From a virus (lineage: Duplodnaviria > Heunggongvirae > Uroviricota > Caudoviricetes), in IMG/VR virus record IMGVR_UViG_2695420589_000003: 19,056 bases of DNA; one strand, written 5' to 3'. The position numbers and the translations under genes are program-made. Below the pieces are notes generated by a model, which was not told the origin of the DNA, ran no database searches, and saw only the letters and a list, made by a program, of their open reading frames with translations. Shown piece after piece: positions 11,937-19,056 of the stretch. Positions within the stretch are counted from its first letter, which is position 1, and the number at the start of each line of letters is the position of its first letter.

Positions 11937-12122
11937 CTACCACTCGATCGGCACGTAGTCATTAAGTTCCGGAGACCAATTGCACTTTTCACATCTGTGT
12001 TTTCCATTCTGGCAGATACATAAACGATAACGGCCACAATGCGGGCACCCATTTTCACCATTATCATAATCACCGAGCGACCATTCCTGCATAAGCAGCT
12101 CTTCTTCATCATCATTTAGCAT
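11937..12122 (-). CDS. Small Cys-rich (zinc-ribbon-like) protein with an acidic N-terminus; island gene 5
   Basis: 61-aa ORF with ATG 12122, AGGGGGA RBS and a Cys cluster (C-x2-C-x5-C-x-C-x6-C-x2-C); last gene of the minus-strand island. Confidence 0.55.
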   Translation of the reverse strand: MLNDDEEELLMQEWSLGDYDNGENGCPHCGRYRLCICQNGKHRCEKCNWSPELNDYVPIEW

Positions 12123-12136
12123 TAATCCCCCTTGAG

Positions 12137-12376
12137 CTATTTACTCTTCTCGGCCCTCAAAATCATACGAGAACCATCATCCAGCTCCCAATTAATTTCA
12201 CCGCCTTCTGCCATGACTAGATGCCAAACGAGTTGAGCGGCCTCGTTGGTTACATCGCGACCGCGATCATTTCCTACGCGGCGTTTTGTTCCGTCTCCTA
12301 AGTCACGCATTTTTGCCAATACGATGGTTTTTGATAGCGGTGAAAAACCAAGCTGTAGTCGTGCTGAATTACTCAC
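12137..12376 (-). CDS. Hypothetical protein (79 aa from GTG, or 57 aa from the internal ATG); island gene 4
   Basis: ORF whose GTG start overlaps the stop of the upstream 174-aa ORF (GTGA); no recognisable motif. Confidence 0.4.
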   Translation of the reverse strand: MSNSARLQLGFSPLSKTIVLAKMRDLGDGTKRRVGNDRGRDVTNEAAQLVWHLVMAEGGEINWELDDGSRMILRAEKSK

Positions 12377-12897
12377 TGGCTGCCCCCTTTGTACTGTGTT
12401 AACTCTTCCTGCTCCTGCATCATGCGATTGACCTGAACGCGTGTGCGTCGAACGGCAAAATTAAATTGAAACATGAGCCGGAACATTTCTGATGCTTCCG
12501 TGTGAGCATCACGGATAGGTGACAGGCGGTACAGTTCTGCCTCCGTAGCTTGTTGAATCAATGACAGATCAAATTGAAGTGCGGGTCTGGTACATTTTGC
12601 ACATCTGGCAGCAAGCTCCGGTATTAGTCTCTTAACGAAGGTGTTTTGCACCGCTTTGTTGATTTGTGTCTGCATCCAAATCGCAAATTTCAGCGAACGC
12701 ATAAGTTTGATAGCCTCGGGCAGCGGCAGATAGATCATGCTGGTAGATTTGGGTGGTTGGTGAACCATCTTCACGGATACGCGATTTCGCAGCGTTCGGA
12801 AAATCGTGTTCCCAACAACAGCTTCTACGGATACAGGACAGGGAGCCAGACCAGCCCGCAGTGCTTCTTTCATTAGCATGTATTCGTATTTTTTCAT
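12373..12897 (-). CDS. Hypothetical basic protein (174 aa); island gene 3
   Basis: ATG 12897 with GAGGA RBS 6 nt upstream; no recognisable domain. Confidence 0.55.
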   Translation of the reverse strand: MKKYEYMLMKEALRAGLAPCPVSVEAVVGNTIFRTLRNRVSVKMVHQPPKSTSMIYLPLPEAIKLMRSLKFAIWMQTQINKAVQNTFVKRLIPELAARCAKCTRPALQFDLSLIQQATEAELYRLSPIRDAHTEASEMFRLMFQFNFAVRRTRVQVNRMMQEQEELTQYKGGSQ

Positions 12898-12957
12898 CGT
12901 GTTTTCCTCGTGCGGGGCGACAGTGCACCCCGATAAAATTAAAAGCCGTCAAATTCG

Positions 12958-13121
12958 TCATTCAGGAAATAATGCCCGGATATTCCCTGCTATCTGACTG
13001 GTTATCTGTGCGGTTGGTACTGGCTGTGGCACGGGGCGTTCTGTCCTGGTTTGTGTCACCGATAACGCCTCATCGTCAGCCCATGCAGCCAGTCGGTAAG
13101 CCTCTGCTGGATTCATTTTCA
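12958..13121 (-). CDS. C-terminal 53 codons of an ORF starting in mask 13122-13387; candidate ParR-like adaptor by position only
   Basis: Open minus-strand frame ending at stop 12958, immediately downstream of the ParM-like gene, which is where parR sits in parMRC loci. No motif verified. Confidence 0.3.
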
Positions 13122-13387
13122 NNNNNNNNNNNNNNNNNNNNNNNNNNNNNNNNNNNNNNNNNNNNNNNNNNNNNNNNNNNNNNNNNNNNNNNNNNNNNNN
13201 NNNNNNNNNNNNNNNNNNNNNNNNNNNNNNNNNNNNNNNNNNNNNNNNNNNNNNNNNNNNNNNNNNNNNNNNNNNNNNNNNNNNNNNNNNNNNNNNNNNN
13301 NNNNNNNNNNNNNNNNNNNNNNNNNNNNNNNNNNNNNNNNNNNNNNNNNNNNNNNNNNNNNNNNNNNNNNNNNNNNNNNNNNNNNNN

Positions 13388-14299
13388 CACCCCGTCCGCG
13401 ATGAAAGTCGCATTAACTCCGCAGGCTTCGCGGATAGCGGGTGCCACAATCTCCGCCCCTCCACCGACAACCATCACCCGCCCGTAACCCGAAAAACCCG
13501 CCAGCGCGCGGATCACGCGTTGTTTCAGTGTTTCTTCCTTTTCACGAATAACCGCCATCAGGCTGGCGTAATGCGCGTCATTGTGGATGTGCTGGCGCAG
13601 CCAGGCTTCATCATGGCGATGTTCGATAATGGTATTGGCGATGTGGTGACTGGTGCGCATACCGTTAGTGGCCATCACCGACAGTACGGCATCGGCCATC
13701 AGAGAAACGCCTACGTGTGGATCGCAAAACACCTGGCTGATACCTGCCAGTTGCCCCTGAACCTTTGCCACATCCAGCGTGGTTCCGCCCAAATCCACAA
13801 TCAGCAGGGATTCAAACGGACTCATGTCAGCCAGTGCCTTAAAGCCAGCCGGAATGGATTCAGGCATAACCCGCACGTTACGGATAGTGAATGCTTCGCC
13901 GTTCTGGTACTCCACCGGGCGCATAACGTTCGCTTTTTTGCGGTTGATGTTGGCCATGTCCGGCTGTGCGTTTGTGTCGAAATACTCGCTCAGTGGCAGG
14001 GTGACAACCACATCCACCTCCTGTGGCGTGATGCCTGATTTGACCAGCGCGTGATGAATGGCAATGACATTTACATCGCTGTACTGGTATTGCGTGTCGG
14101 TTGTCTGGACAAAGCGATCGCTGACCGGATCAAAACCATAGCGCACGCCATCAAGCATGTAGTTCGCGGGCTGCATGCCACCGAACGGCGCAGACCATTC
14201 CGACTTGAAGCTGTTCGGGCTGATGGCGTTGCGGCGTTCGCCGTTCTCAGTCCATGCCAGCTTGATGTTGGTGGAGCCGTCGTCGATACAAATTTTCAT
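13388..14299 (-). CDS. ParM/StbA-like actin-fold ATPase (304 codons visible; C-terminus masked)
   Basis: N-terminus MKICIDDGSTNIKLAW closely matches recalled R1 ParM; all three ASKHA nucleotide-binding motifs present: DDGSTNIK (14261-14284), LIVDLGGTTLD (about 13778-13795), VMVVGGGAE (13451-13477); AAGGA RBS before ATG 14299. Confidence 0.85.
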
Positions 14300-14330
14300 G
14301 TCGCTTTTCCTTATGTTGATTAATTAATCG

Positions 14331-16785: not shown

Positions 16786-17391
16786 NNNNNNNNNNNNNNN
16801 NNNNNNNNNNNNNNNNNNNNNNNNNNNNNNNNNNNNNNNNNNNNNNNNNNNNNNNNNNNNNNNNNNNNNNNNNNNNNNNNNNNNNNNNNNNNNNNNNNNN
16901 NNNNNNNNNNNNNNNNNNNNNNNNNNNNNNNNNNNNNNNNNNNNNNNNNNNNNNNNNNNNNNNNNNNNNNNNNNNNNNNNNNNNNNNNNNNNNNNNNNNN
17001 NNNNNNNNNNNNNNNNNNNNNNNNNNNNNNNNNNNNNNNNNNNNNNNNNNNNNNNNNNNNNNNNNNNNNNNNNNNNNNNNNNNNNNNNNNNNNNNNNNNN
17101 NNNNNNNNNNNNNNNNNNNNNNNNNNNNNNNNNNNNNNNNNNNNNNNNNNNNNNNNNNNNNNNNNNNNNNNNNNNNNNNNNNNNNNNNNNNNNNNNNNNN
17201 NNNNNNNNNNNNNNNNNNNNNNNNNNNNNNNNNNNNNNNNNNNNNNNNNNNNNNNNNNNNNNNNNNNNNNNNNNNNNNNNNNNNNNNNNNNNNNNNNNNN
17301 NNNNNNNNNNNNCGGGGATCCCCGTTCCTTCACGCCCCACTGCGTGGCGCGGTTGTTGCCAGTCCCTGATGTACTCTGCCGTCATAGTGAT

Positions 17392-18344: not shown

Positions 18345-18430
18345 TACGCCTCCTTGGCGTGTGCGAATACCTCCGCGAATGCGGATTGTTTTCACATTTT
18401 CTTATTTAACCTAGGGTCTTATTTGCGCGG

Positions 18431-18544
18431 TTATTCTTCAGTGAAAAAGCGTTCAATCTTTTTTACTGAATTAATAATTCGCATAATCCCAATGGCGCAG
18501 ACCACCGAAATAATCAGAACAAGCCATGAAATAAATATACTCAT
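18431..18544 (-). CDS. Unlisted 37-aa small membrane peptide (MSIFISWLVLIISVVCAIGIMRIINSVKKIERFFTEE)
   Basis: Translated by hand from the minus strand; ATG 18544 overlaps the stop of the upstream 80-aa ORF (ATGA), GGGAAA 7 nt upstream; one hydrophobic helix plus a charged tail. Below the size cutoff of the ORF track. Confidence 0.4.
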   Translation of the reverse strand: MSIFISWLVLIISVVCAIGIMRIINSVKKIERFFTEE

Positions 18545-18783
18545 GCGATATTTCCCAGCTTATACGGTTCAATATGTTCCCCGCATTCTGCGGCACAGAT
18601 CAGCTCGGAAAGTTCGTTAAGTGCATCCAGATCATCAGCGTAAAAAGCCACGTCATACAGACTTCGGATTGCTCTGGTCAATGAGTCACGGGCCGCACGT
18701 TCAGCATGAGCGCCTGATGCACTTAAGCGAAAATAAAAACGCTCAAGTGCTTTGTTAATGAGAGTTTTATATTCTTTGCCCAT
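18541..18783 (-). CDS. Hypothetical early protein (80 aa)
   Basis: ATG 18783 (second codon of track ORF 18541..18786); acidic, helical-looking; no motif recognised. Confidence 0.45.
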   Translation of the reverse strand: MGKEYKTLINKALERFYFRLSASGAHAERAARDSLTRAIRSLYDVAFYADDLDALNELSELICAAECGEHIEPYKLGNIA

Positions 18784-18794
18784 CACAACGCCCT

Positions 18795-18995
18795 TTAATC
18801 TGCTTTCTGTATTTCAGCTTCTGAATCCATACAAATAATTTCGATATAGGGTTCATCGCCATTAACCTGGCGTGCCTTTTCATCTTCGCTGATGATTTCT
18901 CGTACGGTCTGGTACGGAAGTTCCACAAGCAGTCGCGTGCCGTTCAGATAAACGTAAGTGGCTTCGTCGGCTCCGTTTTTACCCGCCGGAGTCAC
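18795..18995 (-). CDS. Possible small ORF (66 aa, GTG start)
   Basis: Track ORF only; GTG start without a convincing RBS. Confidence 0.25.
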   Translation of the reverse strand: MTPAGKNGADEATYVYLNGTRLLVELPYQTVREIISEDEKARQVNGDEPYIEIICMDSEAEIQKAD

Positions 18996-19056
18996 TCCGT
19001 CAATAGCGGATGCACGTAATAACAGTTAGACTGGCCCCCTGAATCTCCAGACAACC

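Follow-up and report, generated by a model that had tools for sequence, protein, structure and literature searches.

The record of phage 186 says of one small early gene, fil, that its "overexpression blocks cell division", and of the gene dhr that it "inhibits host DNA replication". These two genes are followed by the terminator tR1, then by non-essential variable genes, and then by A, while in P2 the genes orf78/B are followed by a terminator at the equivalent place. Imm and Sp of T4, gp15 of HK97 and SieA of P22 are small phage proteins of the inner membrane that act at the envelope, and some of them are made early; they are of about 80-160 residues or more, and most are expressed from prophage or dedicated promoters. 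Two further groups of small membrane proteins come close in size to the subject of this work: the type I toxins, whose systems are often found on plasmids and prophages (PMC12648545), and the class of MgrB, AcrZ, MgtS and SafA, whose members are chromosomal stress-regulon genes with known partners. Here we consider a gene for a predicted membrane peptide of 37 residues, which lies on the minus strand of a stretch of 19,056 nucleotides from a virus of the Caudoviricetes (IMG/VR record IMGVR_UViG_2695420589_000003; the whole stretch is called the window below), and we ask how it compares with these systems.

A preliminary description, made from the letters of the window, had put this gene forward as that of a single-pass membrane peptide coupled to an early-operon gene. 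Read directly from the sequence, the 37-codon open reading frame (ORF; Table 1) matches that description, and comparison with related sequences makes it almost certain that it is a real protein-coding gene. The upstream partner encodes a protein of the DUF4754 family, and 110 loci that bear it were gathered from IMG/VR, NCBI, ENA, Logan assemblies and phage records. The overlapped peptide ORF is found in 109 of them, and so the conservation of the small ORF at this position in related prophages, to which the preliminary description had pointed as a check, is borne out. The peptide is 37 residues long in 83 of the 109 copies, 41 residues in 16, 45 residues in eight and 47 residues in one; the remaining copy belongs to a record full of frameshifts, and the sole locus without the ORF has an early 1-nucleotide deletion.

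The substitutions in these copies follow the peptide frame. The 27 intact alleles of the window's lineage differ by 20 synonymous and 25 non-synonymous changes, where the neutral expectation is ~1:3.4, and omega is ~0.36 in the peptide frame (P = 9e-4), while the two remaining sense frames give 0.87 and 1.44. When 37 alleles from all lineages are taken, omega is 0.35 (P = 4e-8), and the other frames, sense or antisense, give values from 0.51 to 2.42. The lowest of these, 0.51, is that of the antisense frame whose wobble positions are common to the sense frame, and a low omega in such a frame is a known artefact. The synonymous-site variation in relatives, which the preliminary description had named as the observation able to overturn the gene, thus fits coding. 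Between lineages, codons 1-24 show a proportion of synonymous differences (pS) of 0.5-0.8 and of non-synonymous differences (pN) of 0.08-0.25, and the replacements in the transmembrane (TM) part are I, L, V, M, F or A swapped among themselves. Conservation drops steeply just past the peptide stop codon.

Four residues, M1, W7, I20 and R22, are invariant over all lineages. Within the group of peptides that begin MS(I/V)F..., represented by 90 variants that were picked for W7 and G19, residues M1, F4 and W7 are invariant, and S6, L10, I11, S13, V14 and I18 are nearly so. As homology queries, the 41-residue form, a natural read-through variant, finds relatives only in the Escherichia group, and the 47-residue form of the Hafnia/Citrobacter type has no match in the protein collection.

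What kind of protein does this gene encode? Residues 3-21 have a mean Kyte-Doolittle hydropathy of 2.81, and the summed Hessa-scale value for the hydrophobic segment, which is not position-weighted, is -3.35 kcal/mol. There is no charge before this segment, and residues 22-37 hold four K/R and three D/E, so that the hydrophobic helix followed by a charged tail, as read in the preliminary description, is indeed there. The tail (residues 22-37) is amphipathic, with a hydrophobic moment of 1.84 against 0.85 +/- 0.42 in shuffled sequences, 1.6% of which get there. AlphaFold2 predicts a single unbroken helix over residues 2-36, with a predicted local distance difference test score (pLDDT) of 94. 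From these models it is very probable that the peptide is a single-pass membrane-inserted helix, and omega, hydropathy and the predicted helix together uphold the original reading of a coding-type ORF for a single-pass membrane peptide. The TM span is predicted to cover about residues 1-21 with the N-terminus outside, because no positive charge precedes the segment while R22, K28, K29 and R32 come after it (the positive-inside rule); the amphipathic 16-residue tail would then lie on the cytoplasmic side.

The peptide does vary, in the helix at positions 5, 8, 9, 15 and 16 and in the tail at positions 25-27, 29, 32 and 35-37. The part of the gene that encodes the tail contains two homopolymer runs, one of six A and one of five T, and the alignment gaps, at 18448/18449 and at 18464, fall on both of them. 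These runs are indel hot spots and the source of recurrent variants of 45 and 30 residues. The variant tails read ...ERFSLMNNDTNKTSN (the 45-residue form), ...SVKRLNAFSL... and ...SVKKD. The A6 run and position 18458 form an in-frame A_AAA_AAG heptamer, and programmed frameshifting at this heptamer was considered; it was rejected because the heptamer is absent from other lineages and an indel hot spot fits better. Also rejected, as a divergent allele, was the copy in phage 503458 (NC_049341.1; locus L085, 125..470; 57% identity), which has frameshifts in both genes and was set aside. The peptide is unannotated in that record, and the frameshifts in its DUF4754 and peptide genes are probably sequence error.

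A second constant of the locus is what stands before the peptide gene. The upstream ORF encodes a full-length DUF4754 protein (PF15946, E = 2.9e-54; also phrog_2549), and the ATGA overlap between the two genes, noted from the start, is the same junction in every lineage examined. In the DNA of all distant branches checked, the DUF4754 gene ends ...GCA TGA and a small hydrophobic ORF opens at that ATG. This GCATGA junction is retained even where DUF4754 is 32-42% identical to that of the window, and in those distant lineages the peptide, with 54-78% identity, is more conserved than DUF4754. The two genes are therefore a fixed two-gene module of one prophage group, yet they recombine apart: one and the same 41-residue peptide is found in loci L095 and L098, whose DUF4754 proteins share 82% and 40% identity with that of the window. 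Since identical peptides stand behind strongly differing DUF4754 proteins, the peptide needs no co-evolved DUF4754 surface.

The plausible ribosome-binding site of the preliminary description holds for the family better than for the window. Over the family, the Shine-Dalgarno (SD)-like motif at the junction has a mean of -6.0 kcal/mol, against -1.65 +/- 1.94 for segments within the DUF4754 genes, 2% of which reach that mean. The motif is spelled by differing DUF4754 codons, as AGGAGG in locus L108, AGGAG in L099, AGGTGG in L093, and GGGG or GGGA in the window's lineage; the first three score -7 to -10.3 kcal/mol against the anti-SD sequence, while the GGGA of the window is weak, at -4.6 kcal/mol.

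The DUF4754 family itself is very small. A profile search of 1.84 billion cluster representatives returned 27 at E <= 1e-3; Escherichia accounts for almost all of them, and the outliers come from Hafnia and Citrobacter freundii. Among phage records, DUF4754 and the peptide alike turn up only in those of Xuanwuvirus type. A scan of contigs with DUF4754 gave one locus only, and one single-protein scan for DUF4754-related loci gave no match. Structure prediction makes the protein a hairpin of two helices (4-48 and 52-66, pLDDT 87.7) with a disordered C-terminus; nothing in the PDB matches this fold significantly (best E = 2.1), so the partner offers no functional clue.

By its sequence matches, the region of the window that holds these genes is the early lytic operon of a P88-like prophage (Xuanwuvirus, P2 family). 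Of 5426 complete E. coli genomes, 1742 contain a match to the 1.2 kb surrounding the ORF, and between 52 and 88 of the matching places in E. coli assemblies sit on plasmids; among phage records, the matches are confined to P88-like Xuanwuvirus (Peduoviridae, the P2 family) and Citrobacter phage phiSM. In intact relatives the integrase and a C-type repressor are encoded on one strand and the cox operon on the other. The latter runs from cox through DUF4761, phrog_3800, DUF4754, the peptide, a hairpin element and variable cargo to the replication gene A, and this synteny is rigid among the prophage and phage records compared; the peptide gene closes the conserved first block of the operon. After the peptide ORF comes a gap of ~90 nucleotides and then the variable-gene block, and many relatives have a MarR-type winged-helix gene before the replication endonuclease gene A. 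A consensus scan for a separate sigma-70-like promoter of the peptide gene found none above chance. Mitomycin C induces P88, which is a functional phage (PMC5285337; PMC6456863), and in intact phages the peptide is likely to be expressed early in the lytic phase. Some lineages have, directly 3' of cox, a 68-residue ORF with two hydrophobic segments (L087 1908..2114; L108 1666..1872), so that the early operon of those phages has more than one small membrane protein.

The copy in the window is a special case. Its assignment to an early operon is right as regards the position between cox and A in intact relatives, but an insertion sequence (IS) of the IS3 family parts the DUF4754 and peptide genes of the window from cox, from Pe, the early promoter, and from the repressor gene. 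The IS has truncated the phrog_3800 gene: of the 95 positions of that family, the ORF at 18795..18995 covers just 31-95. In strain ETEC1703 this spot is occupied by an IS3-family transposase that is oriented like the operon. For this reason, "early-operon expression" describes the intact phage and not necessarily the window's copy, which may be silent or transcribed from the IS.

The peptide gene is already in public annotation, uncharacterised and with no family name. It is a "hypothetical protein" in RefSeq (WP_000021668.1, from PGAP), gp07 "membrane protein" in the record of phage P88 (YP_009113050.1), a "putative membrane protein" in phage vB_EcoM-569R5 and a "Prophage membrane protein" in UniRef. 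The papers on P88 and phiSM contain no discussion of it (PMC5285337; PMC6456863). That the gene was at first called unlisted is correct for the ORF track used in the preliminary description, because of the length cut-off of that track, and incorrect for RefSeq, the GenBank phage records and UniRef, which list it. The accompanying remark that such peptides are commonly missed by annotation fails here: the main Escherichia lineages are annotated, and only the most divergent copy, the 47-residue Hafnia/Citrobacter type, is uncalled and has no called homologue in the protein collection.

Some familiar identities for a peptide of this shape were tried and rejected. A match to TatA/TatE (NCBIfam PRK04561) had E = 0.11 and 12.4 bits against a cut-off of 104, and hhalign of the peptide family with TatA/TatE sequences entered by hand gave a probability of 0.7% over nine columns. 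A lipoprotein carries the lipobox [LVI][ASTVI][GAS]C after a positively charged n-region. Here no K/R precedes the hydrophobic segment, Cys16 follows V, A, L, I or F, and many members have M, Y or I in place of this cysteine. Holins are small TM proteins encoded in the late lysis cassette beside the endolysin; the peptide gene has regulatory and replication genes for neighbours, within the cox-to-A early operon, and has no match to a PHROG holin.

What, then, might the peptide do? In an intact phage, the Pe transcript would supply it, and only once the phage had infected a cell or the prophage had been derepressed; ribosomes ending DUF4754 would reinitiate at the ATGA junction, aided by the G-rich SD-like motif. 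Once in the membrane, it would act via sequence-specific helix-helix packing, either with a host protein of the inner membrane or with another copy of itself. TM residues that stay invariant, such as F4, W7 and G19, or nearly so amid near-saturated synonymous change favour such a sequence-specific contact over a generic anchor. The peptide would then be a non-structural early accessory factor, of the host-takeover or exclusion type, as fil and dhr are in phage 186. The whole chain, an early host-directed membrane peptide coupled to DUF4754 and including this mode of action, is tentative, and we give it a little less than an even chance. The part of it by which the peptide acts on a host membrane protein is argued from anatomy and from analogy of position and is possible, if somewhat doubtful. 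One can go further and suppose that the DUF4754-peptide pair is an unrecognised early module, in which the peptide inhibits or modulates a host inner-membrane machine, such as the division apparatus, a transporter or receptor, or a membrane protease, and in which the fast-changing positions 15, 16, 25-27, 29, 32 and 35-37 reflect an arms race with the target or with competing phages. This extension is unlikely, but if it were true, both the effector, a small phage protein, and its target would be new.

A number of points weigh against an early host-directed peptide. The topology, the insertion and the timing of expression are predictions. Selection is weaker on the peptide gene than on its partner (omega 0.35 versus 0.21 for DUF4754). 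Frameshifted forms of 45 and 30 residues persist in many genomes, and it follows that the last residues are dispensable, or that the gene is partly decaying or drifting in lysogens. One and the same DUF4754 protein sequence precedes 23 distinct peptide variants. The spacing of the variable TM positions (5, 8/9, 12, 15/16) suggests a helical periodicity that is not significant (permutation P = 0.13). The fil/dhr and DUF4754/peptide pairs have no sequence similarity, their likeness being positional only, and Dhr is not hydrophobic (Fil is hydrophobic only in a short C-terminal stretch). For the peptide and three variants, Pfam gave no match, PHROGs a best E of 0.58 and NCBIfam chance-level TM matches, and no paper was found on DUF4754, the accession numbers or the peptide sequence.

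Could the peptide be directed at other phages, or simply be toxic? A small bitopic membrane protein in a temperate phage brings to mind superinfection exclusion or immunity, with a peptide that blocks DNA entry or early steps of related phages and is expressed early or, at a low level, from the prophage; Imm and Sp of T4 are made early in infection. Near-identical prophages carry many peptide variants that differ at few positions, as phage-versus-phage specificity could yield, although these positions cluster by the recombining cargo boundary, where mosaic recombination explains them equally well. Exclusion would sit uneasily with a gene inside a repressed early operon that has no promoter of its own above chance; in the window, the same-orientation IS3-family element just upstream could perhaps permit expression outside repressor control. 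The known P2-family exclusion genes old, tin and fun and the defence cargo sit in separate hot spots (PMC9122126). Scans of PHROGs and PADLOC found no homology of the peptide to phage exclusion proteins, the PADLOC defence profiles giving no match for three peptide variants and a chance-level one for DUF4754 (E = 0.012, 11 bits). We regard exclusion as quite unlikely. A membrane-damaging toxin, similar to a type I toxin or a holin, which would depolarise or permeabilise the inner membrane and serve host shut-off, abortive infection or post-segregational killing, is suggested by a size and architecture that resemble the Fst/Ldr and Hok classes, and the start codon can be paired away in a weak 6-bp hairpin. 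The surroundings argue otherwise. No promoter-like site was seen on the plus strand across 18400-18620 and no terminator-like site above chance, in a consensus-based scan that a weak or atypical promoter could escape, and no RNA family of Rfam matched in the window, hence no type I antitoxin RNA. The DNA just downstream, a possible antitoxin site, is hypervariable. Far from being an independent transcription unit, the gene is ATGA-coupled in every lineage to a conserved folded protein in the cox-to-A operon, a block for early replication and regulation and not a lysis cassette, where a toxin that depolarised the membrane ahead of replication would work against the phage itself. A toxin is accordingly rather improbable.

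Two other explanations take the gene pair itself as their starting point. If the tail of the peptide tethered the DUF4754 hairpin to the inner membrane, the two products would form one complex and the peptide would be an obligate anchor. An adjacency and stop/start overlap that are invariant in all lineages would favour equimolar co-production, both families are equally narrow in distribution, and the predicted hairpin of DUF4754 is small, ends in a disordered C-terminus and shows no catalytic fold. Against such a complex stand the identical peptides found with DUF4754 proteins ~40% identical to each other, and the single DUF4754 found with 23 variants, frameshifted tails included; with pairings so mismatched, any contact must rely on few conserved residues, and no co-variation of tail type with DUF4754 type was seen. 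The chance of an obligate anchor seems to us small, much as for a toxin. It is also conceivable that the peptide has no function, and that translation of the ORF guards the transcript from Rho-dependent polarity or positions ribosomes, or that the DNA is a recombination linker. The ORF does end where conserved DNA meets hypervariable DNA, recombination is evident at both of its ends, tail frameshifts are tolerated, and according to the record of phage 186, A is translated only if orf84 is translated to its end, so that expression can depend on translation in this phage family. What makes this explanation very improbable is the purifying selection at the amino-acid level, which is specific to the peptide frame. 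The TM sequence is nearly unchanged despite near-saturated synonymous change, a spacer or linker would not show conservative hydrophobic replacements, and length and stop are kept in the 83 of 109 copies with 37 residues, with the 41-residue form in 16 more.

Table 1. Features at and around the peptide gene, in window coordinates.
Feature	Position	Strand	Details
37-residue membrane-peptide coding sequence	18431..18544 (including stop)	minus	ATG 18544..18542, TAA 18433..18431; product MSIFISWLVLIISVVCAIGIMRIINSVKKIERFFTEE
ATGA stop/start overlap of DUF4754 gene and peptide gene	18541..18544	minus	peptide ATG 18544..18542 over TGA 18543..18541; GC-ATGA-GT
Weak SD-like GGGA, 8 nucleotides before ATG, within last DUF4754 codons	18553..18556	minus	GGGG in most alleles
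DUF4754 gene, upstream partner, invariable	18541..18783	minus	80 residues from ATG; 81-residue reading from GTG 18786
Homopolymer runs in tail-coding part	within 18444..18464	minus	A6 18464..18459, T5 18448..18444 (coding-strand letters)
Conserved 46-nucleotide element, 3' edge of conserved gene block	18356..18401	minus	GAAAAT-GTG-AAAACAA-[TCCGC-attc-GCGGA]-GGTATTCGCACAC
5-bp hairpin TCCGC-attc-GCGGA	18372..18385	minus	within 46-nucleotide element
End of IS3-family insertion sequence	19028..19056		alignments to intact prophages end at window 19027

Beyond the peptide gene lies a conserved element of 46 nucleotides. It lies ~30-75 nucleotides past the peptide stop and is present in 101 of the 109 loci, the most divergent included, with varying DNA on both sides. 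The stem of its hairpin is paired in 97% of cells over 20 variants, with one covarying C-G<->U-A pair and one G-U, while the loop varies freely. There is no U-tract on the operon strand; the opposite strand has TTGTTTTCAC after the hairpin. The element is terminator-like only on the plus strand. A mini-ORF within it was rejected because the putative start varies (GTG, GTA, ATG, CTG, ATT, CAG). The element stands where the conserved block gives way to variable cargo, and only its position ties it to the peptide. P2 and 186 have terminators at the equivalent place, and the sequences of these, tR1 of 186 among them, are unrelated to the element.

Other features of these loci deserve a mention. 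In one lineage (loci L099-L106), a second hydrophobic ORF of 31 residues, MKNVKAIHTIATVWVIFQVSALIWLALKIWE, comes right after the peptide gene, ~137 nucleotides past the DUF4754 stop (for example, L099 2378..2473); it has been annotated once, as hypothetical protein KGM81220.1. In the window, the gpA-gpQ hot spot on the far side of gene A holds ParM-type plasmid segregation/partitioning genes, at about 12100..14300 on the minus strand, which fits the remark that a putative partitioning system is present in some P2-like prophages (PMC9122126). Nine stretches of N, of 18 to 571 bases, occur in the window between 2013 and 17312, one of them (16786..17312) inside gene A, and ORFs that span such stretches are artefactually long.

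Since the peptide is already annotated, its existence is not at issue, and interest turns to its role. About one-third of complete E. coli genomes carry this prophage region, which places the peptide among the commoner uncharacterised small membrane proteins of E. coli. With its short sequence, strongly conserved membrane helix and single partner gene, and with a phage, P88, that can be induced and engineered, the peptide offers an easy way in to a possible new contact between phage and host at the inner membrane. Should it turn out to be inert or merely toxic, its gene would stay an ordinary accessory gene.

How does the locus compare with the systems from which we set out? Like the type I toxins of the Hok, Ldr, Fst and TisB classes, which have 20-50 residues, the peptide combines an N-terminal TM helix with a short charged tail. 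Unlike them, its gene is coupled to a conserved 80-residue protein within a long operon, and no antisense RNA gene, own promoter or long structured 5' untranslated region was detected for it. The class of MgrB, AcrZ, MgtS and SafA is similar in size, in the single TM helix and in the short soluble tail (review PMC12648545), and the conserved TM residues of the peptide would fit binding to a larger membrane protein, as in that class; the peptide differs in being encoded by phages of one prophage group, and has no sequence relation to these proteins. The nearest counterpart by position is offered by fil and dhr of phage 186, which belongs to the same family (Peduoviridae, Eganvirus). These genes hold the same place, as the last small overlapping genes in the first block of the early operon, and their products, of 75 and 66 residues, are of a size class similar to the peptide module. 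Seen against all of these systems, the peptide is nothing categorically new; it is an unnamed example of the small membrane peptides that phages encode.

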